In this document: one piece after another, positions 8,065 to 38,996 of the stretch
Layout of the letters: the number at the start of each line of letters is the position of its first letter
How positions within the stretch are numbered: position 1 is the stretch's first letter
NCBI GenBank assembly: GCA_049513915.1
Contig: JBEKVN010000002.1
Coordinates: 242-64,241, forward strand
Length of the DNA stretch: 64,000 nucleotides
Direction: 5' to 3'
Origin: Candidatus Aminicenantales bacterium
Lineage (GTDB): Bacteria > Acidobacteriota > Aminicenantia > Aminicenantales > Saccharicenantaceae
Notes under the pieces: model-generated
Seen by the model: only the letters and a program-made list of their open reading frames with translations
Database searches by the model: none
Told to the model about the DNA's origin: nothing
Translations under genes and position numbers: made by a program

Positions 8065-8210
8065 CTCGAAAACGAGGACCTAAGAAATCCCCTATAGTTT
8101 TATTGGGGTCGGACCAAACCAACTCATTGATAGACAGCTCGTTACCCCAAAAGGCCTGGCGCTTTTTGGCCTTAAGTCCGTGTTTTCAGGGCTCAAAACG
8201 AGGACTTAAG
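8065..8210. repeat. Composite palindromic repeat locus A: half-hairpin + TTGGGGTCGGACCAA box (inverted orientation) + full hairpin CTTAAGTCCGTGTTTTCAGGGCTCAAAACGAGGACTTAAG
   Basis: Box at 8104–8118. Imperfect 40-nt hairpin at 8171–8210. Half copy CTCGAAAACGAGGACCTAAG at 8065–8084. Intergenic between the M48 peptidase and tricorn genes. Confidence 0.8.
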
Positions 8211-8302
8211 AGAGACCTGTTGTCGGGATTCGTCCTGTGGTATAGTTCCGTACTTATCATGGGTGTCCCGAAAAAACACATGATTCCGGGGAGGAAAAAA
8301 AT

Positions 8303-11300
8303 GAGAAAAGCGTCTTGGGTCGTCCTGTGTCTGATCCTCGTTCTTTGCTGGTCCGGTCCCGTTTGGGCCGTGAACACGAAGGACACGAAATTCCTGACCC
8401 AGCCCGCGGTCAGCGCCAACATGGTCGCTTTTGTCTACGCCAACGATCTCTGGACGGCCGACCTCGACGGTAAGAACGTCCGGCGCCTGACCTCGGACGT
8501 CGGCGTCGAATCGAGCCCGGCCTTTTCGCCGGATGGGTCCCTGATCGCCTTCAGCGCCCAATACGACGGGAACACCGACGTCTATGTCGTCCCCGCGGCC
8601 GGAGGCATCCCGAAGCGCTTGACGTGGCATCCGACGGTCGACATCGTCCAGGGCTTCACGCCCGACGGCCAGTCGGTCATCTTCGTCACGCTACGGGATC
8701 AGCCCGTTCGTTCCTATGCCAGCCTCTACGCGGTCCCCGTTTCGGGAGGCATCCCGACCAAGCTCACGATCCCTTATGCCTACCGGGCGGTTTACTCGCC
8801 CGATGGGAAATACATCGCCTATAACCCGTTCAGTGACGCCTTTCTCCAATGGAAGAATTATCGCGGCGGCACGCATTCGCGCGTCTGGATCTTCAACACG
8901 GCCGACCTGTCCATCGACAAGGTCCCCCAGCCGCCCGGCCGGTCGAACGACGCCGGGCCGATGTGGGTGGAATCGAAAGTCTACTTCCGGTCCGACCGCA
9001 ACGGCGAGTTCAACCTCTTTTCCTATGACCGGGCGACCAAGGACATCAAACAGTTGACGTTCTATAAGGATTACCCGGTCCTGAACGCCTCGGCCGGCGC
9101 GGGGCGGATTATCTTCGAGCAGGCTGGCGCCCTCCATCTCTACGACGTCGCCAAAAATCAGGAACGCCGGCTCTCGATCGGCGTGGCCACCGACCTCCCC
9201 GAGCTCCGTGAGCGGTACGCCAAAGGCTGGCAGTGGATCCGAGGCGGGGCGGTCTCGCCGACGGGCGCCCGCGCCGTGTTTGAATTCCGCGGCGACATCG
9301 TCACAGTCCCGGGCGAGAAAGGCGACCCCCGGGATATCACAAACTCGCCCGGCGTCAACGAGCGCTCTCCGGTCTGGTCGCCCGACGGGGCCTCCATCGC
9401 CTATTTCTCCGACGAATCCGGTGAGTACGAGCTCCACGTCCGGAATCAGGAGGGCAAAGGCGACGTGAAGAAATTCAAGCTCAACGGGGCCGGCTACTAC
9501 GGCTCGCCCTCCTTTTCGCCCGACAGCGGGAAGATCGCCTATGCCGATAACAGCCTGACCCTCTTTTGGATCGACCTCAAGACCGGTGTTCATAAAAAGA
9601 TCGGGGCGGAATACATGTATCAGCCGGGAGGACAGGCCGACATGTCCGCCTCCTGGAGCCCGGATTCCAAGTGGGTCAGCTACACCCTGAGCACGCCGAC
9701 CTTCTTCCGCCGGGTCTTCGTCTATTCGCTCGAGCAGGATAAGTCGTTCCCCGTCACCGACGGGCTGAGCGACGTATCAGAGCCCGTCTTCGACCCGAGC
9801 GGGAAGTACCTTTATTTCTTTGCTTCGACCGACGCCGGACCCTCCCGGCAATGGTTCGACCAATCAAACGCCGACATCCGGGAGACGAGCGCCCTCTATC
9901 TGGCCGTCCTTCGGAAAGACGTAACCAACCCGCTGGCCAAGGAGAGCGATGAAGAGAAGCCCGCCCCGGCCAAGGATGAGAAGGCCCCCGGCGCGAAGGA
10001 CGCCGGCAAGCCGTCCGATAAGGGAACGGCCGTGGTCAAGCCCGGGGAAAAAACCGAACCCGCGGCCAAGCCCGCCGCGGCGGCCGATGCGTTCCGCATC
10101 GACTTCGACGGCCTTGACCACAGAATCGTGACCGTTCCCATCCCGGCCGGGATCTACGGCGGCCTCCAGATCGGAGATACAGGAAAAATCTACTACCTGG
10201 CCGTCGACCTGCCCGCGAACCTGGAGTCGCTGGCCAATCTCGGCAGTGTCGCAGGGGCCGTCCATGTGTATGATCTGGCGACACGCAAGGACGAGGTCCT
10301 GGCTCCGGGCGTCAATGGATTCGTCCTGACCGCGGACAAGAAAAAGATGCTCGTGTTTTCCCAGAATTCGGTCGCCATCGTGCCTTCGGCCGGCAAGCCT
10401 CAGCCCGGCCAGGGACGCCTCAATGTGGAAGCCATCGAGGTGCGCGTCAACCCCGAGGCGGAATGGTGGCAGATGTTCGATGAGGCCTGGAGGGTCAATC
10501 GGGATTATTTCTATGATCCCGGCATGCACGGCGCCAACTGGACGGCCGTAAAAGCGAAATACGCGGGCTTTCTCCCCGACGTCCCGTGCCGGGCCGACCT
10601 CAATCGGCTCATCCAGTGGATGTGCTCGGAGCTCGCGGTCGGCCACCATCGCGTGATGGGGGGCGATTTCCCGAACCAACCCAAGCGCGTGCCGGGCGGC
10701 CTCCTGGGCGCCGATTATGCCGTCGAAAACGGCCGCTACCGGATCGTCAAGGTCTACGGCGGCCTGAACTGGAATCCCGAGCTCCGGTCGCCGCTGACCG
10801 AGCCGGGCGTCGATGTGAAAGCCGGCGAATACCTGCTCGCCGTGAATGGGCGGGACCTCCGGGCGCCCGAGAGCGTCTATGCCCGGTTCGAGAACACGGC
10901 CGGCAAGATCGTCGAGATCATGGTCGGCCCCAACGCGGACGGAAGCGGGTCCCGGACAGTCCAGGTCGTTCCGGTCGCCGACGAAGGAGGCCTCAGGAAC
11001 CGCGACTGGGTCGAGGGCAACCTCAAAAAAGTCCAAGCGGCGACGGGCGGCCGCGTGGCCTACGTCTACGTGCCCAATACGACCACCCAAGGCTATGTTT
11101 ATTTCAAGCGGTATTTCTTCCCCCAGGCCGATAAGGACGCGATCATCGTCGACGAGCGCTTCAACGGCGGGGGATCCGTGGCCGATTACTATATCGACTG
11201 GCTGCAGAAGCCGGTCATCGCCTACTGGGCCATGCGCTACGGGGCCGACCTCAAGACGCCGAGCGCCTCGATCCAGGGCCCCAAGGTGATGCTGATCAAC

Positions 11301-11651
11301 GAAAGCGCGGGATCCGGCGGCGACCTCCTGCCCTGGATGTGGCGTAAATTCGGTCTCGGCAAGCTCGTCGGGACGCGGACCTGGGGCGGCCTGGTCGGCA
11401 TCCTCGGATTTCCCGTCCTGATGGACGGTGGGATGGTCACGGCGCCCAACCTGGCCATCTGGACCGAGGACGGCTTCGTGGTCGAGAACGAGGGCGTCCC
11501 CCCGGACATCGAGGTCGAGCAGACGCCGAAGGACGTCATCGCCGGGCACGACCCGCAGCTCGAGCGGGCGATTCAGGTCGTCATGGACGAGCTGGCCAAG
11601 AACCCGCCCAAAAAGCCGAAGAGGCCCGCGTTTCCGATACGAGTGAGATAA
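8303..11651 (+). CDS. Tricorn-protease-like periplasmic protease (TolB-like beta-propellers + S41-type C-terminal peptidase domain)
   Basis: Signal peptide MRKASWVVLCLILVLCWSGPVWA after a GGAGG RBS. Repeated ...SPDG..IAF/...DIY motifs of TolB-type propellers. C-terminal FNGGGSVADYYIDWLQ...LINESAGSGGDLLPWMWRKFGLGKLVGTRTWGG resembles the tricorn/S41 catalytic domain. The track ORF starts at 8103 but the upstream part is repeat-derived, so the 8303 ATG is preferred. Confidence 0.7.
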
Positions 11652-11667
11652 AAAGAGGAGGAGGGTC

Positions 11668-12597: not shown

Positions 12598-12612
12598 GAC
12601 GGCGAGGACGAG

Positions 12613-14556: not shown

Positions 14557-14572
14557 TGAAAGGGGAGGGGAC

Positions 14573-15670: not shown

Positions 15671-15770
15671 TTCTAATTCGGTGACATATAACTAATTACC
15701 GAATTAGAGAGGAATCGTCAAAAGAGTGACAGGCAGAGAGTTTTGGTATTTAGTTATGTGTCACCGAATT
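15664..15770 (+). promoter_or_regulatory. Leader/operator-like region upstream of the BASS transporter with three ACCGAATT/AATTCGGT boxes able to form alternative pairings
   Basis: TAATTCGGT-(15 nt)-ACCGAATTA hairpin at 15666–15697. A third copy TGTCACCGAATTGTGAC at 15757–15773 is complementary to the first AATTCGGTGACA, and GTCAC…GTGAC is itself palindromic. Confidence 0.35.
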
Positions 15771-15798
15771 GTGACTGGATAATCACAGGCCGGAGAGG

Positions 15799-17100
15799 AT
15801 GATGTCCAAGAGAAAGATATTCCTGGCGGCGTTCCTAGTGGCGGTGGCGCTCCTCGCGGGTTCCCTCATCGCCGGCCTCCGGTCCTGGACGGGGGTCTTC
15901 GCTATCGCGGGGCTCGCGGCCGCGGCCCTTTACGCCATGTCCCATGCCGCGCTGAAAAGCTTCGCCTTCACTCTCTGGGTCTTCGCCTTCGTCGCGGCCT
16001 CCATGTTCCACCCGGCGGCCTTCGGGACGTGGTTCGGGGCCGACCTGCGGATACTGATCGTCCCCCTCATTCAGGTCATCATGTTCGGCATGGGCACCAC
16101 TCTGAGCGCCCGGGATTTCGGGCGCGTCCTGACCATGCCCTGGCCGATCCTGATCGGGGTCGTCCTCCAGTTCACGATCATGCCGCTCGTCGGGTGGGGG
16201 ATCGCGACCGTTTTCGGGTTCGATGCCGAGGTGGCCGCCGGCATCATCCTGATCGGCTCGGTCTCAAGCGGTCTCGCCTCGAACGTCATGTCCTACCTGG
16301 CCGGGGGGAATGTGCCCCTTTCGGTCACGATCACATCCGTCACGACGCTCATCTCGCCGTTCGCCACGCCGCTTTGGATGAAGCTCCTGGCCGGCCGGCT
16401 CATCCCCGTCAACGTCGTCGAGATGATGATGTCCATCCTCAACATGATCATCGTCCCCGTGGTCGCGGGCCTCGTCGCGCACCGGATCCTTTACGGGGAC
16501 GGCGGGGACAGGCCCGGCAAACGAGGGGCGGCGGGGCTGGCTGTCTTGGCCGCCGCTGCCCTGGCCTCCGGCGCCGGAGTGATACTTGTCAAGGCTTCAA
16601 CGTTCGGCGTCTTTGCCCCGCTCAAGGGAGGTCTCGTGCTCGGCTTCTTCCTTGTCGGCTTCGCGGCCGCGGCCCGGTTGGCGGCGGCGGTCTGGCTCAA
16701 AACGCCATCGAATTGGATTGACCGCGCACTTCCTTCGGTCTCCATGTTCGGGATCTGCCTGATCATCGGGATCATCACGGCCCGTTCGCGCAATGAACTC
16801 CTTTCGGTCGGGATGGCCCTCTTCGCCGCCGCCATCCTCCATAACGGCCTCGGGTATTTCCTTGGCTACTGGGGGGCGAGGGCCGCCCGGCTGGATGAAA
16901 GCTCCTGCCGGACCGTGGCCTTCGAGGTCGGGATGCAAAACGGCGGCATGGCCTCGGGGATCGCGATGGAGGTCCTCAAGAGCTCGAGTGCCGCTTTGGC
17001 GCCGGCCATTTTCGGCCCGTGGATGAACATCTCCGGCTCGATCCTCGCCAACTGGTGGCGGCGCCACCCGGCCCAAGGGCCTGGAGGACTTAAGAAATAG
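15799..17100 (+). CDS. Bile acid:sodium symporter (BASS/SBF-like) family transporter
   Basis: About 10 predicted TM helices. Family-typical stretch SSGLASNVMSYLAGGNVPLSVTITSVTTLISPFATPLW. Confidence 0.65.
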   Translation: MMSKRKIFLAAFLVAVALLAGSLIAGLRSWTGVFAIAGLAAAALYAMSHAALKSFAFTLWVFAFVAASMFHPAAFGTWFGADLRILIVPLIQVIMFGMGTTLSARDFGRVLTMPWPILIGVVLQFTIMPLVGWGIATVFGFDAEVAAGIILIGSVSSGLASNVMSYLAGGNVPLSVTITSVTTLISPFATPLWMKLLAGRLIPVNVVEMMMSILNMIIVPVVAGLVAHRILYGDGGDRPGKRGAAGLAVLAAAALASGAGVILVKASTFGVFAPLKGGLVLGFFLVGFAAAARLAAAVWLKTPSNWIDRALPSVSMFGICLIIGIITARSRNELLSVGMALFAAAILHNGLGYFLGYWGARAARLDESSCRTVAFEVGMQNGGMASGIAMEVLKSSSAALAPAIFGPWMNISGSILANWWRRHPAQGPGGLKK

Positions 17101-17229
17101 GCTATTCAACGTAGAGAATTCCTTAAGTCCCTGTTTTGGGGCCCCAAAATGCATAGTTAAGCTCGTTTTGGCGCCCATTTTTTAGTCCAATTGTCGCGGC
17201 ATCAGCGAGTTACCGTGGTCCGACCCCAA
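17084..17229. repeat. Composite palindromic repeat locus B (hairpin CTTAAGTCCCTGTTTTGGGGCCCCAAAATGCATAGTTAAG + GTGGTCCGACCCCAA box)
   Basis: Hairpin at 17122–17161. Box at 17215–17229. A half-copy GAGGACTTAAG forms the last codons (GLKK*) of the BASS transporter gene. Confidence 0.75.
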
Positions 17230-17403
17230 TTCCGGTCCCAATTCCCAGTCAGCTCGCACAAAAGGGAACCTTTCCCTCGGGGAATCCGTATAGAGGGGCG
17301 AGAGATATGAGTGTGCGCCGCGAGATTCCGGCGGAATTCCGGCCCAATCACAGGCGGTCCCGCCTTCATATCCCGCGCGCAATCAAGGATGGAGAGATGA
17401 ATT

Positions 17404-21947: not shown

Positions 21948-21950
21948 GCC

Positions 21951-23229: not shown

Positions 23230-24714
<1,485 letters not shown>

Positions 24715-24931
24715 ATAAAATAACCGGAATTTGGCCACCGTTTTTGGCCTTAACTATTTGTTTTTGGGGTCGAAAAAGAGGACTTAAGCTATTCAGCCAC
24801 AGAATATCCGACAAAAAGTATCCCTTATTGCTAGATTCCTTAACTCTTGTTTTTCGGCCTCCAAAACGCGGACTTAAGGCATAAAAAGGCCCCATTTAGT
24901 CGTTTATCTGTATTATTATAAATAAGTTAAG

Positions 24932-24958
24932 TTGGTCCGACCCCAAATCTGCTATAAT
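24932..24958 (+). promoter_or_regulatory. Possible hrpA promoter built on the repeat box: TTGGTC-N15-TATAAT ending 6 nt before the ATG
   Basis: TATAAT at 24953–24958 and TTGGTC (part of the TTGGTCCGACCCCAA box) at 24932–24937. The spacing is short (15 nt), so this is weak. Confidence 0.25.
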
Positions 24959-24964
24959 GCGGGC

Positions 24965-27900
24965 ATGGACAAGCGGGAGGCGGGGCAGACGACGGCCTCG
25001 GGTCATCTCCGGAAGATCCGCGAGCTTCTTGACCGAGCTATGCTCCGCGATAAAGAACAGGCCGTCCGTGCGCTGAGCGTGCTCCAAAGGCAACACGGGG
25101 GAGGCGCGCGGCCCGTGTCCGAGGGGCTCCTCCGCGACCTGGCCGCGCTCGAGGAACGGCTGGCGGCTTCGGCCGGCGAATGTCAGCGCCGGGCCCGCGC
25201 CCGGCCGCGAGTTTCGTATCCGCGCGAACTCCCCATCACCGCGCGCGCCGGCGAGATCATCGAGGCCATCCGCTCGCCCCGCAATCGGGTCGTCATCATC
25301 TCGGGGGAGACCGGCTGCGGCAAGAGCACCCAGATCCCTAAGATGTGCCTCGAGGCGGGGCGGGGGGTCGCCGGGCTCATCGGCTGCACTCAGCCGCGGC
25401 GCATCGCCGCCGTCACCATCGCCTACCGGATCGCCGAAGAGCTGGGTGAGGAGCTCGGCCGCTCCGTGGGCTACAAGATCCGCTTCCAGGACCGGACCTC
25501 CCGTGACGGCTACGTCAAGATCATGACCGACGGCATTCTGCTCGCCGAAACTCAGGGCGACCGCCGCCTCACGGACTATGACACGATCATCATCGACGAG
25601 GCCCACGAGCGCTCCCTCAACATCGATTTCCTCCTCGGCATCATGCGCCGGCTCCTCGACGACCGGCCCGAGCTCAAGCTGGTCATCACTTCGGCGACCC
25701 TGGATACGGAGAAGTTCTCGCAGGCCTTCCGGAACGCGCCCGTCATCGAGGTCAGCGGTCGGCTCTACCCCGTCGAGCTCGAGTACCGCCCGCCCGCGAA
25801 GGACACGGCCGAAGACAAGGACTACGTGGACCAGGCGGTCGAGGCCGTCGAATACATCCGGTGGGACAAGGCGGCCGGCGACATTCTCGTCTTCATGCCG
25901 ACCGAACAGGACATCCTCGAGACGCGCCGCATCCTCGAGGGGCGTAAATTTCCGGATACGGCGGTCCTGCCGCTCTTCTCGCGCCTGCCGGCGGGGCAGC
26001 AGCGCATGGTCTACAGCGTGAGCCGGCCGAAAATCGTCATCGCCACGAACGTCGCCGAGACTTCGCTTACGATCCCCGGCATCCGCTACGTCGTGGACAC
26101 GGGAGTCGCGCGGATCGCCCAGTACCAGCCGGGGACGCGCATCAACAGCCTGCCGATCAGCCCGATCTCGCGGGCTTCGGCGGACCAGCGCAAGGGGCGC
26201 TGCGGCCGCGTCCGGGAAGGGCTCTGCGTCCGGCTCTACTCGGAAACCGAATACGAATCGCGCGACGAATTCACGTCGCCGGAGATCCTGCGCTCGGACC
26301 TGGCCGAGGTCATCTTGAGGATGATCGACCTGGGGTTGGGTCATCCGCTCGAGTTCCCGTTCATCGACCGGCCCGCGGCCAAAACCGTGCGCGACGGCTA
26401 CGAAACGCTCGTCGAGCTCGGCGCGATTTCCAGAAGGGGGACACAATACTCTGTCCCTGAATATGAGCGGTCGGGAAAAGCGGGACAGAGTATTGTGTCC
26501 CCCTTAAGGATAAATGCGCAAGGCCCCGATTGGGCGCTCACCGACAAGGGCCGGATCATGGCCCGGATGCCCCTGGACCCGCGCGTCTCCCGAATGCTCG
26601 TCGAGGCCGGCCGCGAGAATTGCCTCCCCGAGGTCGCCGTCCTGGCCGCCGCCCTGAGCATCCGCGACCCGCGCGAGCGGCCTCCCGAGCTCGCGTCCCA
26701 GGCCGATGCCGTGCACGCCGCCTTCCGTGACCCGAACAGCGATTTCCTGCTTCTCCTGAACATTTGGAACCGCTACCACGGCGATTTTGAAAAGCTCGGG
26801 ACGGTCACCCAGAAGCGCAAGTTCTGCCACGATCATTTCCTCTCGTTCCCCAGGATGCGCGAGTGGGTCTACCTCTATGACGAGATCCGCTCTGTCCTCT
26901 CCGAACAGCACCAGACGCCGGGCAAAACCAAAGGGGAAGTCGGGCCCAAAAATCCGGAAACAAATATTGTGTCGCCGAAAAATAAATTGAAAGCGGAGGG
27001 CAAGGCGGCCGTCGTGCCCCACGCCGATATCTCGCCCGTCCTTTATGCCGCCATCCATCGCTCTATCCTGGCGGGATTCCTGTCAAATATCGCCGCTCTC
27101 AAAGAAAAGCGCATCTACACCGCGGCCAAGAACCGGGAGGTGACCCTCTGGCCGGGTTCCGTCCTCTTCAGCAAGGCGCCCGCCTGGATCGTGGCCACCG
27201 AGGTCGTCAAGACCTCGCGTCTGTTCGCCCGCCAGGCCGCGCGCATCGACCCCGCCTGGCTCGAGGACCTGGGCGGCTCCCTCTGCAAGCGCTCCTATTA
27301 CGACGCCGCCTGGGACCGCGGCCGTGGCGAGGTCGCGGCCAAGGAGCGGGTCACCCTGTTCGGCCTGGAGATCCTTCGCGACCGGCGCGTTTCCTACGGC
27401 CGGATCAACCCGGCCGAGGCGCATGAGATCTTCGTCATGTCCGGGTTGGTTGAAGGAGAGGTGGACGGTCCGCCCGCCTTCCTCCCGCACAACCTCGGCC
27501 TCCAGCACAAGGTCGAGGCCATGGAGGAAAAGCTCCGCCGCCGCGACATCATGATTCCCGAGGCCGAAATCGCCAAGCTCTATTCGGCCCGCCTGCCCGG
27601 AATTTGCGACATCCGGTCGCTTCTCAAGCTCATCAAGGACCGGGGCGGCGACGATTTCCTGCGCTTCACCGAAGACGACCTCATCCTCAGGCGCCCCGAC
27701 GCCGATACGGTGTCCGCGTTCCCCGACACAGTCGAGGTCGCCGGCCGCCCTTTCAGGGCTGTCTATAAGTTCGCCCCGGGCGAGGACGACGACGGCGTGA
27801 CCCTGAAGGTCCCGGCCTCGATCCTCTCCGCCATTCCCGACGGCCGGCTCGAATGGGGAGTCCCGGGGCAGTACAAGGACAAGATCGCCGCCCTGATCAA

Positions 27901-29332
27901 GGGCCTCCCCAAACGGTACAGGAAGCTCCTTGTCCCGGTGGGGGAGAAGGCTGAGACGATCGCCGCCGAGATGCCGCAGGCGCCGGAGGAGGCGCCGCTC
28001 GCGAAGGCCGTGGCGGAGTTCGTCAGGCGCCGGTTCGGGGCGGACATCCCGGCCCGCGAATGGGCCCTGGCCGAAGTCCCGAAATACCTGAGAATGCGCC
28101 TGGCCGTGACCGACCCCGCGACCGGCCGCGTCATTGACACCGGCCGCGACGTCGAGCTCCTGCGGAAAAAGATCGGCGCGGCGGACGAGGCCCCGTCGAA
28201 GGTCGAATCGCCCGCCTGGCAGGAGGCCCGCCGGAAATGGGAAAAGGCGGGATTGACGTCGTGGGTCTTCGGCGATTTGCCGGCCAAGATCGTTGTCGGG
28301 ACATCCCTCACGGCCTATCCCGCGCTCGCGGTCGAGGGCGGCCAGGCTTCGGTTGAAATCCGCCTTTTTCCGGCGCGGGCCGAGGCCGAGGCGTCTCACC
28401 GACTCGGCGTCCGTTGGCTCCTCATGCTGAAATTCGCCAAAGACCTGGGCTTCGTCAGGCGGTATCACAAGATTCCGGCCGAATATGAGCGTGCGGCGGT
28501 GGCCTTCGGAGGCCGCGACGCCGTGGAGCGGGCCATCGAGAGCGCCCTGGCCCGCGAGGTCTTCGAGCGGGACATCCGCACGGATGCGGATTATAAGGCC
28601 TACGAGGCCGAGGTCGGCCGGACGCTCTTCGAGAAGGGGCATGCCCTGACCCAGACGACGCTCAAGATCCTCGAACTCAACCAGGCCCTGCGGACGGAGC
28701 TCGGGAACGGCCGGCCCGCGACCCAGCGGGGGGCGTCAAGAAGGGGTCAAATCTTCATTCTGCCACTTTCCGGAAAGAACGAGCCCCAGAAAAAGTGGCA
28801 GAATGAAGATTTGACCCCTTCTTATTTGTCGCGCGGCCGCGTCAAAGAGCCCGTCGTCCCCGCTTACTTCGAAGAGATCGCGGGCGACCTGGACGAGCTC
28901 CTGCCCGCGAATTTTCTCGAAGTTTATCCGGTCGACAGGATCATCCGCATCCCGCGCCTCCTCGACGCCTTGAAGATCCGGCTGGGGCGCGCCCGGCTCG
29001 ATCCCGAGAAGGACAAGGCCAAGGCCGCTCAGGTCGAGCCCTTCGAATTCGCGTTATCTCAGTTCGAAGCGGAAACCCCGGGCGCCGGCGCGGGGACACC
29101 AGAATTGGGGACACAATACTCATTTCCGAATTACGGTGGGGGAGCGGGGACCAGAAAAACGGAAATTAGTATTGTGTCCCCGAATTTGGAAAAGCGCCGC
29201 GCGGTCGGGGAGCTCCGCCGCATGATAGAGGAGTTCAAGGTCTCCCTTTTCGCTCCCGAGATCAAGACCGTCTTTCCCATCTCGGCCGTCCGCTTGGCCC
29301 GCAAGATCAAAGAGATCGAGGCGATTGTTTAA
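24965..29332 (+). CDS. hrpA: ATP-dependent RNA helicase HrpA (DEAH-box) carrying several in-frame palindromic insertions
   Basis: Motifs GETGCGKSTQIPK, IIIDEAHERS, SATLD and QRKGRCGR, plus an HrpA-type C-terminal region. The track ORF begins at a TTG inside a repeat (24932); the ATG at 24965 (MDKREAGQ...) is preferred. Total length about 1455 aa, longer than typical HrpA because of the insertions. Confidence 0.9.
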   Translation: MDKREAGQTTASGHLRKIRELLDRAMLRDKEQAVRALSVLQRQHGGGARPVSEGLLRDLAALEERLAASAGECQRRARARPRVSYPRELPITARAGEIIEAIRSPRNRVVIISGETGCGKSTQIPKMCLEAGRGVAGLIGCTQPRRIAAVTIAYRIAEELGEELGRSVGYKIRFQDRTSRDGYVKIMTDGILLAETQGDRRLTDYDTIIIDEAHERSLNIDFLLGIMRRLLDDRPELKLVITSATLDTEKFSQAFRNAPVIEVSGRLYPVELEYRPPAKDTAEDKDYVDQAVEAVEYIRWDKAAGDILVFMPTEQDILETRRILEGRKFPDTAVLPLFSRLPAGQQRMVYSVSRPKIVIATNVAETSLTIPGIRYVVDTGVARIAQYQPGTRINSLPISPISRASADQRKGRCGRVREGLCVRLYSETEYESRDEFTSPEILRSDLAEVILRMIDLGLGHPLEFPFIDRPAAKTVRDGYETLVELGAISRRGTQYSVPEYERSGKAGQSIVSPLRINAQGPDWALTDKGRIMARMPLDPRVSRMLVEAGRENCLPEVAVLAAALSIRDPRERPPELASQADAVHAAFRDPNSDFLLLLNIWNRYHGDFEKLGTVTQKRKFCHDHFLSFPRMREWVYLYDEIRSVLSEQHQTPGKTKGEVGPKNPETNIVSPKNKLKAEGKAAVVPHADISPVLYAAIHRSILAGFLSNIAALKEKRIYTAAKNREVTLWPGSVLFSKAPAWIVATEVVKTSRLFARQAARIDPAWLEDLGGSLCKRSYYDAAWDRGRGEVAAKERVTLFGLEILRDRRVSYGRINPAEAHEIFVMSGLVEGEVDGPPAFLPHNLGLQHKVEAMEEKLRRRDIMIPEAEIAKLYSARLPGICDIRSLLKLIKDRGGDDFLRFTEDDLILRRPDADTVSAFPDTVEVAGRPFRAVYKFAPGEDDDGVTLKVPASILSAIPDGRLEWGVPGQYKDKIAALIKGLPKRYRKLLVPVGEKAETIAAEMPQAPEEAPLAKAVAEFVRRRFGADIPAREWALAEVPKYLRMRLAVTDPATGRVIDTGRDVELLRKKIGAADEAPSKVESPAWQEARRKWEKAGLTSWVFGDLPAKIVVGTSLTAYPALAVEGGQASVEIRLFPARAEAEASHRLGVRWLLMLKFAKDLGFVRRYHKIPAEYERAAVAFGGRDAVERAIESALAREVFERDIRTDADYKAYEAEVGRTLFEKGHALTQTTLKILELNQALRTELGNGRPATQRGASRRGQIFILPLSGKNEPQKKWQNEDLTPSYLSRGRVKEPVVPAYFEEIAGDLDELLPANFLEVYPVDRIIRIPRLLDALKIRLGRARLDPEKDKAKAAQVEPFEFALSQFEAETPGAGAGTPELGTQYSFPNYGGGAGTRKTEISIVSPNLEKRRAVGELRRMIEEFKVSLFAPEIKTVFPISAVRLARKIKEIEAIV
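26436..26503. repeat. Perfect 22-bp inverted repeat (GGGGGACACAATACTCTGTCCC … GGGACAGAGTATTGTGTCCCCC, 24-nt loop) inside the hrpA coding frame
   Basis: Read directly at 26436–26457 and 26482–26503. Encodes …SRRGTQYSVPEYERSGKAGQSIVSP… between conserved HrpA blocks (…LVELGAI | LTDKGRIMARMPLDPRVSRML…). Confidence 0.9.
26956..26993. repeat. Degenerate solo arm of the same GGGACAC-type element inside hrpA
   Basis: GGAAACAAATATTGTGTCGCCGAAAAATAAATTGAAAG resembles the right arm of the 29102–29187 element (CGGAAATTAGTATTGTGTCCCCGAATTTGGAAAAG). No partner arm is visible. Confidence 0.45.
28738..28823. repeat. Perfect 32-bp inverted repeat (AAGAAGGGGTCAAATCTTCATTCTGCCACTTT … AAAGTGGCAGAATGAAGATTTGACCCCTTCTT, 22-nt loop) inside the hrpA coding frame
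   Basis: Read directly. Encodes …RGQIFILPLSGKNEPQKKWQNEDLTPSYL… in frame. Confidence 0.9.
29102..29187. repeat. Near-perfect inverted repeat (GAATTGGGGACACAATACTCATTTCCG … CGGAAATTAGTATTGTGTCCCCGAATTT) inside the hrpA coding frame, sharing the GGGACAC core with the RAYT REPs
   Basis: Arms with 1–2 mismatches and a ~31-nt loop. Encodes …ELGTQYSFPNYGGGAGTRKTEISIVSPNLEK… in frame. The first 15 nt are identical to the 26436 element. Confidence 0.85.
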
Positions 29333-32598: not shown

Positions 32599-32634
32599 CG
32601 TGAGCCGGCGCCCGGCCTGAAACAGGAGGCATGA

Positions 32635-33978: not shown

Positions 33979-34043
33979 TAATCGGCCCAGCTTCTTTTCC
34001 CGGTGTTTTCCTGGCCGGAAGACGTCACTAAGTGCTCGATTTG

Positions 34044-34134
34044 GAGGCCGAAAACATCAAGTTAAGGCCAATAAGGGGAGCGAAAAAGAAGCTTGTTTGT
34101 TTTGTATCAATCAGATAAGTTGGTCCGACCCCAA
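34044..34134. repeat. Composite palindromic repeat locus D (half-hairpin GGAGGCCGAAAACATCAAGTTAAGG + TTGGTCCGACCCCAA box)
   Basis: Half hairpin at 34044–34068. Box at 34120–34134, preceded by the conserved GATAAGT. Intergenic between the deacetylase gene and the vapBC pair. Confidence 0.7.
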
Positions 34135-34152
34135 AAGCTACTGGCGTCCGTC

Positions 34153-34509
34153 CTAATACGCAACATTCAATCGAGCCGCCGTCCTGCTGAGCGTGCGGTC
34201 GAGTGTCCAGAGCGGCGCCCCGGTGATAACCGCAGACGCCAGCAGGTGGACGTCGATGTATCCGAGGCCGATCCCGGCGAGCCGGCGAAGCTCGATAAAC
34301 CTCATCGCCTCTTCGTCGCTCACCGCGGCCGCCCGGGGGAGGGTTTGGAGCAGGTCCAGAATTTCCCTCCGGTTCTTGAGATTCCCGCAAGCCAATTCGC
34401 CGACGATGAACGGATGGGAAAGGACTTCCCCCTTATCGAGCGCCGCCCCGAGCCGGTCATTCCCTTCCCGGAAATGGGCTACCCAAACCGACGTATCGAC
34501 CAGAACCAT
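34153..34509 (-). CDS. vapC: PIN-domain toxin VapC
   Basis: MVLVDTSVWVAHF... with the N-terminal Asp quartet context typical of PIN/VapC. Lies directly downstream of a small antitoxin gene. Confidence 0.8.
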   Translation of the reverse strand: MVLVDTSVWVAHFREGNDRLGAALDKGEVLSHPFIVGELACGNLKNRREILDLLQTLPRAAAVSDEEAMRFIELRRLAGIGLGYIDVHLLASAVITGAPLWTLDRTLSRTAARLNVAY

Positions 34510-34512
34510 ATG

Positions 34513-34707
34513 TCAATCCGCCGCTCTTCGTCTCGGAATGGGGCGTAATCCCTTCTCCGTTCCGCCGAGCTTCGCCAGCCGCCGGCTGCTCTCCAGGGCA
34601 ATCAGCGATTCCAGGCCCTTTCTGACCAGGGATGTTTTTTCCTTAATTCCGGTCATCTCCGCGGCGGTTTTCAGAAGATTGTCGTCGATATTGATGGTCG
34701 TCCTCAT
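34513..34707 (-). CDS. vapB: VapB-family antitoxin
   Basis: 64-aa protein MRTTINIDDNLLKTAAEMTGIKEKTSLVRKGLESL... typical of the small VapB/'DUF2191'-type antitoxins. 3-bp gap to vapC. Confidence 0.6.
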   Translation of the reverse strand: MRTTINIDDNLLKTAAEMTGIKEKTSLVRKGLESLIALESSRRLAKLGGTEKGLRPIPRRRAAD

Positions 34708-34740
34708 ATGTATATATATGCATCATTAATGCATATAAGT
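34705..34740. promoter_or_regulatory. Candidate vapBC-1 operator/promoter: AT-rich palindromes CATATGTATATATATG and TATATGCAT-cattA-ATGCATATA
   Basis: Perfect 9-bp inverted repeat at 34715–34737, immediately upstream of the vapB start (34707, minus strand). Confidence 0.4.
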
Positions 34741-34867
34741 CAAGGGGGTCACGAGACTCCTTCGTTTCTCTTGTAAAGGACGCAGGCTAACGCGCTCCAT
34801 TATCAATTGTTGAAAGAGGCCTACATCCCCCGCCCGGTCATGCTAAAATAGGCGGGAGGTGTCCGAC

Positions 34868-35893
34868 ATGGAGAAGAAACCTTCATCCTGGGCGGCGGCC
34901 CGCGATCAGGCGATCGACGAGTTCCTTGACACGTTCGCGGATTCCCCCGACCGCGACCTCCTGGCCGAGATCATGGTCACGGTCACCCGGCTGGCCCGCG
35001 AGAAAACGGGCCGGGGCGAGCTCAAGCTCCTCACCTCGGCGTTCATGGAACTGCGCTACGCGTTCAAGGTTTTCGCGCCGTTTTCCCATATCCGCAAGGT
35101 GAGCATCTTCGGCTCGAGCCGGACGCCGCCCGGCCATCCCGACTACGTCCAGGCCGAGTCGTTCGCGCGGCTCATGCGCCTCCGGAATTGGATGGTCATC
35201 ACCGGCGCCGGCGACGGCATCATGGGGGCCGGTCAGGCCGGGGCCGGGCGCTCGGGCAGCTTTGGCGTCGCTATCCGCCTGCCCCACGAGCAGCAAACGA
35301 ACGAAGTTATCCTGGCCGACCCCAAGCTCATCAACTTCAAGTACTTCTTCACGCGCAAGATCCTGTTCCTGAAGGAAGCCTCGGCCATCTGCCTGTTCCC
35401 GGGCGGGTTCGGCACGCACGATGAGGGGTTCGAGTCGCTGACCATGATCCAGACGGGAAAGGCCAACCTCATGCCCGTGGTCATGGTTGACGCGCCGGGC
35501 GGCACGTACTGGCAGCATTGGCGGACGTACATCAAGGCGGAGCTCCTCCACAACGGGATGATCGCGCCGGAGGACATGAACCTTTTCATGCTCACCGACG
35601 ACGTCGACAAGGCGGTCGAGGAAATCGCCGGCTTTTACCGCCGCTACCATTCGATGCGCTACGTGGGGCCCAGGCTCGTGCTTCGGGTCACGTCACCCGT
35701 GCCGGCTCAGGCTTTGGTGAAGCTCAACGATACGTACTGCGGGATCGTCACAGCCGGCAGGATCGAGCAGTGCGCGGGGCCGGTCGAAGGGGAAGGGGAC
35801 GAATATCCGGGGATGCCGCGGATCACACTCCAGTTCAACCGGAAAAACGTGGGCACACTCCGGCTGATGGTGAACGAGATCAACCAGGCATAG
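34868..35893 (+). CDS. LOG-family (lysine-decarboxylase-like / nucleotide 5'-monophosphate nucleosidase-like) protein with N- and C-terminal extensions
   Basis: Motifs KVSIFGSSR, ITGAGDGIMGAG (GGGxxGxMG-like) and LFPGGFGTHDEGFE (PGGxGTxxE). GGAGG RBS 8 nt upstream of the ATG at 34868; an alternative GTG lies at 34859. Confidence 0.7.
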   Translation: MEKKPSSWAAARDQAIDEFLDTFADSPDRDLLAEIMVTVTRLAREKTGRGELKLLTSAFMELRYAFKVFAPFSHIRKVSIFGSSRTPPGHPDYVQAESFARLMRLRNWMVITGAGDGIMGAGQAGAGRSGSFGVAIRLPHEQQTNEVILADPKLINFKYFFTRKILFLKEASAICLFPGGFGTHDEGFESLTMIQTGKANLMPVVMVDAPGGTYWQHWRTYIKAELLHNGMIAPEDMNLFMLTDDVDKAVEEIAGFYRRYHSMRYVGPRLVLRVTSPVPAQALVKLNDTYCGIVTAGRIEQCAGPVEGEGDEYPGMPRITLQFNRKNVGTLRLMVNEINQA

Positions 35894-36064
35894 GCCCCCA
35901 TCTCGGACACTCAACCCGCCACTTTTTATGGCAATGAACGGTTTTCTATTTCTTGGATACAGTGACTCACCCAAGAGGCTGAGATCTGAATGACCTTTTG
36001 CCGACATCTAAGGCTTTCGGGCATGCACGTGAGAAAATTCAAAAAATCATGTGTTATAAATAAA

Positions 36065-36096
36065 TGTGGTGAAAAATACAACGATTGTGGTAAAAT
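36065..36096 (+). promoter_or_regulatory. Direct repeats TGTGGTGAAAAAT / TGTGGTAAAAT in the AT-rich region upstream of the wHTH-MNT gene (possible autoregulatory operator and -10 element)
   Basis: Two copies 20 nt apart, directly before the ATG at 36108. TAAAAT could serve as a -10. Confidence 0.3.
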
Positions 36097-36107
36097 TTAC
36101 TACAGCA

Positions 36108-36695
36108 ATGACCAAACCTTTGGAGAAGTTGTTCGGCTCGCGCACAAGGGCAAGGCTCCTGGGCTGGTTTTTCACTCATTCCGGCGAATCTTTTTCCGTT
36201 CGTCAATTGGCATCGATCCTTAGAGACGACCCGTCCAACCTCAGCCGTGAGATGGCCAAGCTCGAGGACCTCGGCATCCTGATTTCGTATAGGGATAGGA
36301 ATCTTAAGAGTTTCCGCGTGAACGAAGGGTGCTCATTTGGGCCGGAGCTGAAAGCCCTTATCCAAAAAACGACCGGCATCATCGGGCGGCTGAGGACCGC
36401 TCTCCAAACCGTCATGGGAATCGATTTTGCTTTCGTTTATGGATCTTTCGCCAAAGGGACCGAGAATGCCGAGAGTGATGTGGACCTTTTGATCGTCGGC
36501 GAGGCCGATTTGGATCCGCTCGACCGGTTGTTCTCCGGCCTGGAAAGGGATCTCGGCCGGACCATCAACTACGTGCTTTATAGCAAACGCGAGTATGAGG
36601 CCAAGAAGGCCAAGAAAGATGCGTTCCTTCAAGAAGTGCTGAGAGAGGACAGGATCCGGGTTATTGGGGACGGCGATGGACCTGAAGCGGCTTGA
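36108..36695 (+). CDS. Winged-HTH fused to minimal nucleotidyltransferase (MNT/Polβ-like); antitoxin-like or AbiE-like component
   Basis: N-terminal ArsR-like wHTH (RARLLGWFFTHSGESFSVRQLASIL). NTase signature FVYGSFAKGTENAESDVDLLIV (GSx10DxD). The ATG at 36108 is preferred over the upstream GTG at 36066. Confidence 0.65.
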   Translation: MTKPLEKLFGSRTRARLLGWFFTHSGESFSVRQLASILRDDPSNLSREMAKLEDLGILISYRDRNLKSFRVNEGCSFGPELKALIQKTTGIIGRLRTALQTVMGIDFAFVYGSFAKGTENAESDVDLLIVGEADLDPLDRLFSGLERDLGRTINYVLYSKREYEAKKAKKDAFLQEVLREDRIRVIGDGDGPEAA

Positions 36696-37107
36696 AACTC
36701 TTGGGCTCATTGAAAAGATCAGCCCAAATAGAAAGCAGGCCTTAACCCAACTTGGAAGGGCTCGGCGCGATCTCCTGACATCTGGCGCGAACCTGTTGAT
36801 TGATGAAGAATGGGCTTATACGATTGCTTATCACGCCATGCTTCGAGCCGGGCGTGCGCTCCTTTTAGCCTATGGATACCGGGCCAAGGGGAAAGACCAG
36901 CACAAAACCGTCGTGGAGTTCTCGGCGACGATACTCGGCCCCGAATTCAGCCGCCTGGCCATAAGATTTAACCAGATGCGCATGAAGCGGCATGCGTTTA
37001 TTTATGAAGCCGAAAAACCCGTATCACGGACCGAAGCAGAAAAATCCCTCAAAAGCGCCGGCGAATTTGTTAGAGAGATTGCCGGCAGAGTGGAGAGGCT
37101 GATTTAG
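36676..37107 (+). CDS. HEPN-domain protein (putative RNase toxin partner of the upstream MNT)
   Basis: About 140 aa, all-alpha. Rx4-6H-like motif in RFNQMRMKRHAFIYE. Overlaps the MNT gene's 3' end by ~20 nt, as TA pairs usually do. Confidence 0.55.
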   Translation: MDLKRLETLGLIEKISPNRKQALTQLGRARRDLLTSGANLLIDEEWAYTIAYHAMLRAGRALLLAYGYRAKGKDQHKTVVEFSATILGPEFSRLAIRFNQMRMKRHAFIYEAEKPVSRTEAEKSLKSAGEFVREIAGRVERLI

Positions 37108-37198
37108 CCTGATAGATTTCCTGAGAAGAGCGATTTCGTAAATGAAAAAAGCGATTCTTCCAAGTGCAGAAAAGGCGAAACTCGGCGTGAGACCCCGA

Positions 37199-37378
37199 TG
37201 CGGGCTTTGCGGGAAAACGAAAAACCTCACGAAAACGGATTGCTGCGGAAGCTGGATTTGTGACGATTCTCACATGTCTGATTGCCCAGACAGCCATCGA
37301 GCACGGGCTTTACCTTCTCCACAACGATGCCGACTTCGGCCGGATCGCCCGCGTATCCGCGCTAAAAATCTGGGAGTA
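37199..37378 (+). pseudogene. Remnant of a VapC/PIN toxin gene (C-terminal ~55 codons only)
   Basis: The frame after an internal stop reads ...KRIAAEAGFVTILTCLIAQTAIEHGLYLLHNDADFGRIARVSALKIWE*, which matches the C-terminal half of PIN toxins (DLLIAA.A...G..LVT.N..DF..I). It has no PIN N-terminus or start codon. The annotated ORF 37142–37438 is in a different frame (Cys-rich, doubtful). Confidence 0.35.
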
Positions 37379-37415
37379 ACCTGTTGTCGCGGTGCGCCAC
37401 CTAAGGACACTCGAC

Positions 37416-37796
37416 CTATCCCAGGCGATAGGGGATAAGGATGAACGGGTGCCTTTTTTCATCGAAATCCTTCGAGTCTCTAGTCACCAGCTTGAGGCCG
37501 CTCCGAAGGGCCATGGCAGCCTGGAGCGCGTCCGGAAGCCTCCAGCCGTTTCTCTTCCTCAATTCGGCGGCCCTCGTGGCAACATCCTTCGTCAAGGGCA
37601 GGCACTCGAACTGCTCGCATAGCTCATAGGCGGCAAGCGTCTCGTCTTCGGTTCCCCCGCATAACACCTCTGCCCGCGTGATCACGGAAATGACGGCCTC
37701 TCCCTCACGTAGCTTCTGAAGCCATTTCGTCGCCTCTACGATTCCCCGGAGATGGTCGATAAGAACTGTCGAATCCAGAAGATAGACCGGCTTCAC
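37416..37796 (-). CDS. vapC: PIN-domain toxin VapC (second pair)
   Basis: MKPVYLLDSTVLIDHLRG...VITRAEVLCG...LVTRDSKDF is a canonical PIN/VapC. Overlaps the upstream antitoxin gene by 4 nt. Confidence 0.8.
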   Translation of the reverse strand: MKPVYLLDSTVLIDHLRGIVEATKWLQKLREGEAVISVITRAEVLCGGTEDETLAAYELCEQFECLPLTKDVATRAAELRKRNGWRLPDALQAAMALRSGLKLVTRDSKDFDEKRHPFILIPYRLG

Positions 37797-38044
37797 GTTT
37801 TACGCTCCCACTCCTTGCGCAGAGCGTCGACATGGTCCCGCGTGTCGCCCTTGACCGAGGTCCAGATTCCGGCCGTTTCGCGGAGGACCCCGGCCAGGCC
37901 TTTCTGGGATTTCTTAAGGCGGTATTCCCTGATCGCGCGGCGGACGACCTCGGCGCTCGAGATCCTGTGACGCCGGCTGTAGCTCTCAAGCCACTTCTTT
38001 TCGTCTTCGGGTATCGATACGATTGTCCTGGTCATGGCGGCCAT
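37793..38044 (-). CDS. vapB: Ribbon-helix-helix (CopG/VapB-type) antitoxin
   Basis: ...MTRTIVSIPEDEKKWLESYSRRHRISSAEVVRRAIREYRL is an RHH fold signature. Alternative starts at 38035, 38044 and 38053 (GTG). Confidence 0.65.
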   Translation of the reverse strand: MAAMTRTIVSIPEDEKKWLESYSRRHRISSAEVVRRAIREYRLKKSQKGLAGVLRETAGIWTSVKGDTRDHVDALRKEWERKT

Positions 38045-38047
38045 CTC

Positions 38048-38084
38048 GATCACCTCACCCTATATATATCAGTAAGGTGATATC
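38048..38084. promoter_or_regulatory. Candidate vapBC-2 operator/promoter: GATCACCT…(TATATATAT)…AGGTGATATC inverted repeat
   Basis: 7/8-bp inverted repeat around a TATATATAT core, overlapping or just upstream of the RHH antitoxin start. Confidence 0.35.
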
Positions 38085-38180
38085 ATGTCAACGCGTTTGC
38101 TCAAAGACCGTTACCGGTGACCGAACGCGCCCGCAGCATGATAGACGCCTCCCGATGGCTTTTTTCTCTCGGAGTGAGAA

Positions 38181-38241
38181 AGAAGGGGTCGTATCTACGC
38201 ATTACGCATTTTCCGCGTAATGCGTAGATACGACCCCTTCT
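38181..38241. repeat. Intergenic perfect 27-bp inverted repeat with AGAAGGGGTC…GACCCCTTCT termini (same terminal motif as the 28738–28823 hrpA element)
   Basis: AGAAGGGGTCGTATCTACGCATTACGC attttcc GCGTAATGCGTAGATACGACCCCTTCT. Lies between the vapB start region and the stop of the glycine-zipper gene. Confidence 0.85.
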
Positions 38242-38249
38242 ACTCCAGT

Positions 38250-38801
38250 TTACCTGAATTCCGGGACGCGGGCCTTTTTTCTGAGGGCTTCGATGGCGGC
38301 GTTGATTTTGTCCGGCGTCTCTCCCCGGAAGTTGTAGACTTTGTCCTTGCTGAGCAAGATCCCGAGTCCGTACCCGGCCCCGCCGCCGATGACCACCCCC
38401 AGCCCGGCGAACGGCCATTGCGTTGATTTGGTGACCGGGATATGGGTTTCGTCGCCCTTTTTCCCCAGGGCAAAACCGATAAAGCCGCCGGCCACCGCGC
38501 CGATAACGAGTGTCAAGGGCTTCAGGGACTCGCGCACGACACCGACCGTATCGATGTCCCTGATCTCCACCGTTCTCTCCCGGGAGCCGACCTGGACGAC
38601 GATTTTGTCCCCGCTGATCCCGATCAATTCGCCCAGGATCGTCCCGGGAGATATCAGGGTCACCCGGACCTCAGCGCCCTGTTGCCGCACAGCCAGGGCT
38701 GCCTGGGGCACTCCGGCCATCATGACGGCCATCCCCGACACGATGAGGCCCAGCCGCATCCGTCGCCAGCTGAAACCCTTAATTTTCGCCCATCCGTTCA
38801 T
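38250..38801 (-). CDS. Exported hypothetical protein with glycine-zipper motifs
   Basis: N-terminal signal/TM MRLGLIVSGMAVMMAGVPQAALA. G-x3-G repeats (VIGAVAGGFIGFALG; GLGVVIGGGAGYGLGILL). Confidence 0.45.
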   Translation of the reverse strand: MNGWAKIKGFSWRRMRLGLIVSGMAVMMAGVPQAALAVRQQGAEVRVTLISPGTILGELIGISGDKIVVQVGSRERTVEIRDIDTVGVVRESLKPLTLVIGAVAGGFIGFALGKKGDETHIPVTKSTQWPFAGLGVVIGGGAGYGLGILLSKDKVYNFRGETPDKINAAIEALRKKARVPEFR

Positions 38802-38887
38802 CGCCGCACCGCCTTCCTATATTCGAGGCCTTATCCATAATCCTCTCGGCGGCCGGCGATGTCAAGAATTGATGAATCCGGGCGTGG

Positions 38888-38996
38888 CTTTAAGTCCGCG
38901 TTTTCGAGGCCCAAAACGAGGACTTAAGGCTTAAAACAGGCTCCAAGAGCGAGCTAACTCTAATTATAGCAATAAGATGATTTGGTCCGACCCCAA
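38888..38996. repeat. Composite palindromic repeat locus E (hairpin CTTTAAGTCCGCGTTTTCGAGGCCCAAAACGAGGACTTAAGG + TTGGTCCGACCCCAA box)
   Basis: Hairpin at 38888–38929. Box at 38982–38996, preceded by AATAAGATGAT. Intergenic between the glycine-zipper protein gene and the hybrid kinase gene. Confidence 0.8.

Follow-up and report, generated by a model that had tools for sequence, protein, structure and literature searches.

The first 39 kb of a 64,000-nt stretch of DNA from a Candidatus Aminicenantales bacterium (contig JBEKVN010000002.1, positions 242 to 64,241; this whole stretch is called the window below, and coordinates are counted from its first nucleotide unless another locus is named) carry six full-length copies of a repeat unit of ~108 nt, distributed over five loci designated A to E. 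On one strand, each unit consists of an imperfect hairpin of ~40 nt (CTTAAGTCC-N-TTTT-loop-AAAA-N-GGACTTAAG), followed by 54 nt of free sequence and by a terminal box, TGGTCCGACCCC. A search of the window for the box, as TTGGTCCGACCCCAA with up to two mismatches, gave six matches, against an average of 0.2 in dinucleotide shuffles (0 of 100 shuffles reached six); the gap between hairpin and box is exactly 54 nt in all six copies, and the six regions can be aligned across about 110 nt. A previous sequence-only reading of this DNA had described the same modules recurring at five loci, with four loci in plus orientation, one in minus and both orientations at locus C, and in these respects it was correct. 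The copies are as follows (E values are from nhmmer, and z scores compare the hairpin, folded as single-stranded DNA, with shuffled sequence):

8103-8210, minus strand: copy A, a full solo unit (box 8103-8117, hairpin 8171-8210; E 7e-16; z -1.6)
17083-17094: a 12-nt remnant, GGAGGACTTAAG, of the hairpin of the lost partner of copy B
17122-17229, plus strand: copy B, now solo (hairpin 17122-17161, box GTGGTCCGACCCCAA at 17215-17229; E 2.5e-13)
24681-24788, minus strand: copy C1, the left arm of a doublet (box 24681-24695, hairpin 24748-24788; E 2.3e-13; z -1.9)
24839-24946, plus strand: copy C2, the right arm of the same doublet (hairpin 24839-24878, box 24932-24946; E 1.7e-16)
34027-34134, plus strand: copy D, solo, with a degenerate hairpin (hairpin 34029-34067, box 34120-34134; E 1.6e-13; z 0)
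38889-38996, plus strand: copy E, solo, with the best-preserved hairpin (hairpin 38889-38928, box 38982-38996; E 2.5e-14; z -3.0)

Four solo units and one head-to-head doublet with its boxes pointing outward thus make up the set, and each copy either falls between genes or cuts into the final codons of one. Copy A lies between the divergent genes for an M48 peptidase (6177-8003, minus strand) and a tricorn-like protease (8301-11651, plus strand); the remnant beside copy B now codes for the final residues (…GGLKK*) of the open reading frame (ORF) of an SBF transporter (15799-17100); 18 nt separate copy C2 from the start codon of hrpA downstream of it (24965); on one side of copy D is a polysaccharide deacetylase gene and on the other a vapC (PIN) gene, which faces it with its 3' end; and copy E lies about 100 nt upstream of the gene for a hybrid histidine kinase (39098-41383). 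Pairwise identity among the six copies is 59-74%. A profile built from 100 copies of other genomes retrieves precisely these six from the window and no others (E 1e-13 to 1e-16). Just beyond the box of copy A, at 8068-8084, the sequence GAAAACGAGGACCTAAG matches 15 of 16 nt (AAAACGAGGACCTAAG) aligned with the 3' half of the unit hairpin; it is probably a fragment of another copy, undetected by the profile search. The ~40-nt hairpin postulated earlier can be retained for copies E, C1 and A, whereas those of B, C2 and D fold at shuffle level, and the proposed '(G)ATAAG(A)T' prefix of the box is present as a weak consensus and no more than that.

The unit is widespread. A scan of one genome per species with the pattern AAAA-N7-TTAAG-N45-65-TGGTCCGACCCC, for which about six chance matches were expected, found at least 117 stretches that carry it. 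The matches listed include metagenome-assembled genomes (MAGs) labelled Desulfobacterales, Syntrophales, Geobacteraceae, Woeseiaceae, Chromatiales/Thioalkalivibrio, Scalindua, Terriglobia, Aminicenantes, Eubacteriales, Bacteroidales, Fibrobacter and Oceanipulchritudo, as well as isolates of Alloalcanivorax and Desulfuromonas. One of them (L044; loci outside the window bear L numbers) is a 3.7-kb contig binned as a Thermoplasmata archaeon, with two tandem units at 1597-1819 that are nearly identical to those of L086; it reflects either transfer across domains or a mis-binned short contig. A second scan, of metagenomes, used the hairpin arm of the window-type variant together with the box (GGACTTAAGG-N45-60-TGGTCCGACCCC) and found 23 loci, mostly head-to-head doublets with spacers of about 30-40 nt and with up to eight units per 13.7 kb; L123, L124 and L140 hold 4-8 copies apiece. 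Gene-less head-to-head doublets with spacers of 5-100 nt are frequent in other loci too, and the doublet at 24681-24946 is their parallel in the window. A literature search with the box sequence brought up no relevant paper.

What had been taken for two separate modules is a single discrete element of about 106-108 nt with sharp edges, because, across 99 distinct copies of varied taxonomic origin, information per column falls to zero directly before CTTAAA and directly after TGGTCCGACCCC(aa), and because the spacing is constant, the exact length being shared by 109 of the 133 pattern matches among those listed. A 100-copy profile yields 254 matches across the 117 listed loci, and among 162 distinct full-length copies are 52 that lie outside the original search pattern and that independently show the box to be the most conserved part. 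The 12-nt box is far better conserved than the remainder of the unit, and the flanks outside it show no conservation across the family.

Such a discrete unit of constant length, found across phyla, might in principle be a structured noncoding RNA gene or a cis-regulatory RNA in which hairpin and box share a conserved fold, and the covariation score of the family (0.171) does exceed those of all 500 shuffles. Nevertheless, RNAalifold finds no consensus structure in 150 copies, pairing amounts to 64.1% as compared with 62.0% in shuffles and arises from the palindromic blocks CTTAAA/TTTAAG and TTTT/AAAA, and a candidate second helix (CCnAAAA/TTTTnGG), 48.7% paired, is unsupported and partly reflects the coding of …FW in the tail of a transposase introduced below. 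Rfam returns nothing at gathering thresholds, and for locus C (24600-25050), scanned at E values up to 10, only chance-level matches. Moreover, relative to genes the copies face either way, some form inverted pairs around the transposase gene, and their conservation is in part that of the sequence coding for the C-terminus of that enzyme. We therefore regard an RNA as very unlikely, and covariation, by which the sequence-only reading had proposed to test for conserved structure at the RNA level, is weak. ARAGORN found no tRNA or tmRNA in the window, which disposes of the possibility that the motifs are fragments of one.

Does any gene recur alongside the unit? Every ORF within 3 kb of a unit was clustered, and two unrelated Y1 subfamilies that had co-clustered were then separated. 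One protein family recurs, its gene directly adjoining the hairpin side of the unit in 17 of the 117 listed genome loci; the protein is ~263 aa long and reads MARANRHYIPGYVWHITHRCH…SNHIHLL…GAFWEDRYHATAV…YIDLNMVRAG…. In 12 of these 17 loci the Y1 gene is bracketed by two inverted units, 713-867 nt apart, with boxes facing outward. Complete elements of the main group measure 928-941 bp (e.g. L081 71-1011 and L067 733-1660), and the autonomous form thus comprises inward hairpins, outward termini GGGGTCGGACCA…TGGTCCGACCCC and one ~263-aa gene within about 0.93-0.95 kb, as given by the best-sampled subfamily. The transposase ORF runs into the right-hand unit, the hairpin block of which codes for the C-terminus (…PYGANFTSKNGLLRSQNTYYWDDIG*), i.e. 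the last ~15-25 codons, and this explains part of the sequence conservation there. For the window-type variant (the GGACTTAAGG hairpin), a homologous Y1 gene, 45-52% identical, is found between inverted units in 4 of the 23 metagenome loci. One of these four elements is laid out as follows:

L125, 5322-6336: element with its left box at 5322-5335, its gene at about 5528-6274, ending inside the right hairpin, and its right box at 6322-6336

A junction repeat, of a kind described below, directly follows the right box of L125. The two arms of this element are 65% identical to each other overall and, given that the window copies share 59-74%, constraint rests on the hairpin blocks, the box and their spacing, and not on the linker. 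Other, unrelated Y1/RAYT-like genes also occur near units (L080 3484-4528, L007 6409-7069 and L042 5545-6106), implying that several TnpA_Y1 subfamilies coexist in those genomes; in the C-terminal tail of the L080 protein, which is of the NHFHLL…NRYKS type and resembles subclass 2.1 of Quentin, HTH_1 is matched weakly and below threshold.

The ~263-aa protein matches Pfam Y1_Tnp (PF01797) with 27.7 bits, above the cutoff of 23, and this is its sole Pfam match. A sequence search of the PDB with it gave no match. Its AlphaFold model, of moderate quality (pLDDT 68.6, pTM 0.70), is closest in fold to 4ER8_A, the Escherichia coli REP-associated tyrosine transposase (RAYT; REP, repetitive extragenic palindrome) bound to a REP hairpin (E 1.3e-5; target-normalized TM score 0.62), and next to structures of ISDra2 and IS608 TnpA. 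Across 20 diverse homologues, N59 and H62 of the HUH motif are invariant and H60 is at least 90% conserved, while the Y motif, Y121---N125 M126, is invariant or nearly so, with M126 invariant. The family numbers at least 7,843 clusters at E ≤1e-10, most members being 263 aa long, and its members are named 'putative transposase', 'transposase' or 'REP element-mobilizing transposase RayT' in their sources. Many of them come from contigs about 1 kb long, which is what a multicopy insertion sequence (IS) that breaks assemblies should produce. Among plasmid records the transposase has no close homologue, none exceeding 34% identity.

Taken together, these observations lead us to propose, with a probability of roughly 0.85, that the six repeats of the window are non-autonomous copies of the ~108-nt terminal inverted repeat (TIR) of a small, TIRtron-type IS-like element moved by a RAYT-like Y1 transposase of the IS200 superfamily. 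By homology with RAYT and the TnpA proteins of IS200/IS605, the enzyme would recognize the hairpin on single-stranded DNA and would cleave and rejoin at the outer boundary, directly after …GACCCC; the element itself, or gene-less doublets in trans, would thereby be moved without target-site duplication, and effects on neighboring genes, such as altered 3' ends, would be by-products of insertion with no designed function. Rather than an RNA structure, the hairpin is accordingly best viewed as a DNA recognition element of moderate stability, comparable to those at the ends of IS200/IS605 elements and in REPs, since pairing across the family is weak, RNAalifold finds nothing and three window copies do fold as DNA. 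Our proposal agrees with the earlier suggestion of a dispersed family, similar to REPs or bacterial interspersed mosaic elements (BIMEs), that may serve as the substrate of a mobilizing enzyme, and the recommended search for a co-distributed enzyme of the RAYT type led to just such a gene between inverted unit copies in other genomes.

No target-site duplication was found at 35 doublets and complete elements: 27 of the 35 show no match at all, and the remaining eight match over 1-3 nt, which is the chance level. This fits the single-strand 'peel and paste' transposition of HUH/Y1 enzymes, established for IS608 and ISDra2, and argues against miniature inverted-repeat transposable elements (MITEs) of the DDE type. 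The latter might otherwise come to mind, for instance in the form of Tn3-derived inverted-repeat miniature elements (TIMEs), as doublets with identical outward termini look MITE-like and GGGGTCGGAC at the terminus recalls Tn3-family inverted repeats with their initial GGGG (GGGGTC). However, Tn3-family elements generate target-site duplications of 5 bp, and the only gene repeatedly found between the ends codes for a Y1 HUH protein and not for a DDE transposase, and hence we consider this origin highly improbable. Other candidates were considered and set aside: a sigma-54 promoter or an integron attC site, since neither spacing nor motifs match and housekeeping genes fill the 5-9 kb between copies, as judged from the sequence itself, and SINE-like (short interspersed element) target-primed retrotransposition, suggested by partial copies that share their 3' end, since no recurrent reverse transcriptase lies nearby and the recurrent gene is that of the Y1 HUH protein.

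How does this element compare with known systems? RAYT-like genes flanked by long TIRs instead of REPs have been named TIRtrons or TIRYT (Di Nocera 2013, PMC3733652), with 26 TIRYTs published; a majority of the published TIRs, though not all, share GGGGWSAS, and the repeats are single, dimeric or clustered and moderately abundant in some genomes. Most TIRYTs were assigned to TnpA_Y1 subclass 2.1, with members bearing a C-terminal helix-turn-helix (HTH) domain (Bac_DnaA_C, HTH_23 or HTH_28), and class 2 (RAYT-like) proteins in general read Y---NP, with the HUH motif as NH[x]H or DH[x]H (Quentin 2018, PMC6006769). The present unit and gene match this known, barely studied class and do not constitute a new regulatory system. 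The likeness lies in a Y1 gene between inverted units, found outside the window in 12 genome and four metagenome loci, in flanking repeats that overlap the 3' end of the gene, in TIRs dispersed as single, dimeric and clustered copies, and in a terminus that starts with GGGG. In full the terminus reads GGGGTCGG and agrees with GGGGWSAS at seven of eight positions, position 7 being G instead of A. By contrast with the TIRtrons described there, the present TIR is bipartite, combining a hairpin and a 12-nt terminal box across a fixed 54-nt linker, and, unlike subclass 2.1, the 263-aa family is without a Pfam-detectable HTH tail and reads Y---NM. Neither the spread across phyla nor the duplications at the element junctions (see below) appear in PMC3733652 or PMC6006769, and in open-access PMC and bioRxiv the terms TIRYT and TIRtron occurred in these two papers only, with no experimental work found.

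With REP/REPIN-RAYT systems the element shares the fold of the enzyme (4ER8 being the best match), a gene between inverted repeat copies and vertical inheritance over long periods, and, with REPINs in particular, gene-less inverted doublets and decayed singlets scattered in intergenic DNA. Yet the classical REP or BIME is a palindrome of 20-40 nt tagged with GTAG or CGTC, whereas the present unit is about 108 nt long and its consensus has no such tag. Classical REPs and BIMEs also exceed about 100 copies per genome; for the present unit, the 64 kb analyzed contain six copies, all within the first 39 kb. Likewise, the present transposase behaves as a multicopy IS and not as the single-copy domesticated gene that RAYTs are. 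With IS200/IS605 it has in common the Y1_Tnp domain, hairpins near the ends and the absence of target-site duplication, but those elements have distinct left and right ends without terminal inverted repeats, whereas here the ends are inverted copies of one unit, and their proteins are of ~150 aa with a Y---Q motif, whereas the present protein has an additional C-terminal half of about 120 aa.

Several points weigh against our interpretation. The ~263-aa protein scores 71.3 bits (E 7.7e-20) against the NCBIfam equivalog for REP-associated tyrosine transposases (NF047646), below its cutoff of 80, and its invariant Y---NM departs from the Y---NP of class 2 just mentioned. The hairpin is weak across the family, its middle six pairs being about 45-55% paired, in line with the three window copies that fold no better than shuffles. 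A tblastn search of the 64-kb window revealed no Y1 transposase gene, and current mobility in the host genome is therefore hypothetical. The box, moreover, persists in places where the rest of the unit has gone (L142 and L149; see below), which could mean that the host selects for it. Lastly, to our knowledge no TIRYT has been characterized biochemically, and where such an enzyme would cut, on which strand, and what the 54-nt spacer would do are inferred.

Comparison with relatives offers some insight into the history of two loci. The SBF transporter of the window is 100% identical to an NCBI protein from a Candidatus Aminicenantales bacterium MAG. At locus B, L147 and L148 (88-89% DNA identity) possess the full doublet including a complete left arm, which is gone from the window, about 115 nt being missing there; copy B is orthologous to the right arm of these relatives and 80-87% identical to it, roughly as expected for neutral change. 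The more distant L149 retains a decayed copy only, with the box GAGGGCCGACCCCC. It follows that 'solo' units are decayed doublets and that this insertion is old. At locus C, L146 is 91.7% identical to the window across 5.4 kb (79% at 4-fold sites) and has a doublet at the same site between aspA and hrpA, the interior of which is 37-66% identical to that of the window, as opposed to 88-94% at the outer junctions. Both ends of the L146 doublet carry a variant terminus peculiar to it, GGCCCGACCCC; on its right side come 8 nt and then a second, resident box, the flank of which is the same as in the window. In L142-144 (86% AspA identity) the aspA-hrpA spacer is only 86 nt long and contains no hairpin or linker, yet GGTCCGACCCC is found upstream of the TATAAT of hrpA. 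On these alignments, the simplest reading would be that doublets were inserted or replaced independently beside an older box remnant, in which case the unit family was active after these lineages split; alternatively, the interior of the doublet may have changed faster than neutral. The copies of the host genome are thus mostly old and vertically inherited, decaying by deletion from doublet to solo unit to box-only remnant, while at least one site seems to have been turned over recently. That the box outlives the rest of the unit, as upstream of hrpA in L142 and at locus B in L149, is a new result.

This persistence, the much stronger conservation of the 12-nt box, the intergenic position of all six copies and the fact that five of the six boxes point to the start of a downstream gene could be taken to mean that the units, whatever their origin, are REP/BIME-like elements with a function for the host, selected at operon boundaries as terminators, insulators or binding sites of host proteins. 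We find this unlikely. Consensus scans of loci B, C and D (16.9-34.4 kb) place no intrinsic terminator and no sigma-70-like promoter on the copies, the hairpins are not followed by a T-run and three of the six fold at shuffle level, the flanks beyond the box are unconserved across the family, which speaks against a fixed promoter geometry, and the interior of the locus C doublet was replaced regardless of sequence. An inward extended -10 promoter (TGnTAnnnT) within the conserved TTGATAT motif, considered as a separate candidate, is present in only 9 of 162 copies. Of the roles proposed in the sequence-only reading, termination and insulation therefore have no support, an intergenic position being what one expects of tolerated insertions.

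A second new result concerns short tandem duplications at the junction between box and flank. Directly outside the box, 29 of 159 distinct copies (about 18%) show a perfectly periodic stretch of 8 nt or more (period 8-14), as compared with 2 of 159 on the hairpin side (Mann-Whitney p = 1.3e-6). The repeats begin 0-8 nt inside the box, and what is repeated is therefore the final 1-8 nt of the box together with 5-10 nt of flanking sequence. In L099, L103 and L031 the duplicated stretch is longer and takes in the final 22-42 nt along with flanking sequence. Two cases fall in the window:

17225-17245, plus strand: micro-duplication after box B, CCC AATTCCGGT CCC AATTCC
24655-24690, minus strand: three 12-nt junction repeats at copy C1, CCGACCCCTAAC on the element strand, each consisting of the tail of the box and 4 further nt

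How many AATTCC(C) units locus B holds varies among relatives, from none in L149 through two in L148 and in the window to three in L147. At C1, CCGACCCC-TAAC is repeated three times (run 24, period 12, start -8), and these repeats code for the (RVRG)x3 tail of aspartate ammonia-lyase (AspA; ORF 23230-24714), which ends in …GGRRVRGRVRGRVRGRTKLGYCK*, coded by the junction repeats and the box of C1 (24640-24714). Homologues of AspA, of which the nearest named relatives are from Acidobacteriota/Aminicenantes, align across only 95% of the query, which suggests that the insertion gave the enzyme a new C-terminus. It is conceivable that the junction is a fragile site where, for example, repeated nicking by the transposase would give rise to microhomology-mediated duplications that then expand by slippage.

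The window contains further palindromic elements. Three of about 82-91 nt lie within the hrpA ORF (24965-29332, plus strand), at 26429-26510, 28738-28823 and 29099-29189, and leave its frame intact; when aligned with E. coli HrpA, the window protein has an insert of 27 aa between positions 477 and 479 and another of about 35 aa between positions 1253 and 1256. Of the three elements, the first is missing from L146 (8 nt as against 92 nt in the window), i.e. it is an 84-nt in-frame insertion polymorphism. Two of them begin with GGGGACAC, fitting the TIRYT motif GGGGWSAS, and the third has perfect 32-nt arms (AAGAAGGGGTC…); all are intragenic MITEs resembling Rickettsia palindromic elements (RPEs). 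A perfect 27-nt inverted repeat with a 7-nt loop (AGAAGGGGTCGTATCTACGCATTACGC) at 38181-38241 is of the same AGAAGGGGTC type as one inside hrpA but intergenic, and sits in a stretch of about 800 nt that is missing from the related loci L133 and L138. Between the DUF362 and SBF transporter genes, at 15675-15770, a 29-nt inverted repeat is 90% complementary (AATTCGGTGACATATAACTAATTACCGAA / …), and one of its arms, of 30 nt, is 93% identical to the opposite strand of the same intergenic region in L147/L149; an operator is one possibility for this repeat, a further small palindromic element another. Genes of the toxin-antitoxin type adjoin copies D and E, namely vapC (PIN) with vapB, a nucleotidyltransferase/HEPN pair and a second PIN gene (34153-34707, 36066-37107 and 37416-37796), the region of the second PIN gene being 89% identical to metagenome loci L133 and L138, each with a unit nearby. 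Past about 42 kb, G+C drops from about 63% to 38-52% over a co-directional run of genes (42000-56000) that has no unit and that may be an acquired cluster; within it, at 42943-43005, are three tandem 21-nt repeats (GTACGTGTCCCAGGAATTTCC).

Are there wider implications? Going beyond our proposal, one might speculate, although we are rather doubtful, that the family represents a very large uncharacterized branch of HUH/Y1 transposons with an undescribed mode of action, in which the terminal box would act as an insertion hot spot in vivo and nicks made where box and flank meet would give rise to short tandem duplications, by which the 3' ends of genes (AspA, SBF) and promoter-proximal DNA would be rewritten. 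The size of such a branch is suggested by at least 7,800 protein clusters, with MAGs of many bacterial phyla and one labelled archaeal, and the idea that the box attracts insertions by the turnover at locus C and the tandem boxes of L146.

Whether or not this holds, a conspicuous repeat family of Aminicenantales is, in our interpretation, transposon debris, which it would be a mistake to annotate as an RNA gene or a regulatory element, and the unit, its boundaries and its autonomous form provide a sequence-level definition of a TIRYT-type element. The transposase family is very abundant in anoxic-sediment metagenomes. The invariant 12-nt terminus, the fixed 54-nt spacing and the junction micro-duplications offer handles on the way in which RAYT-like enzymes process DNA.

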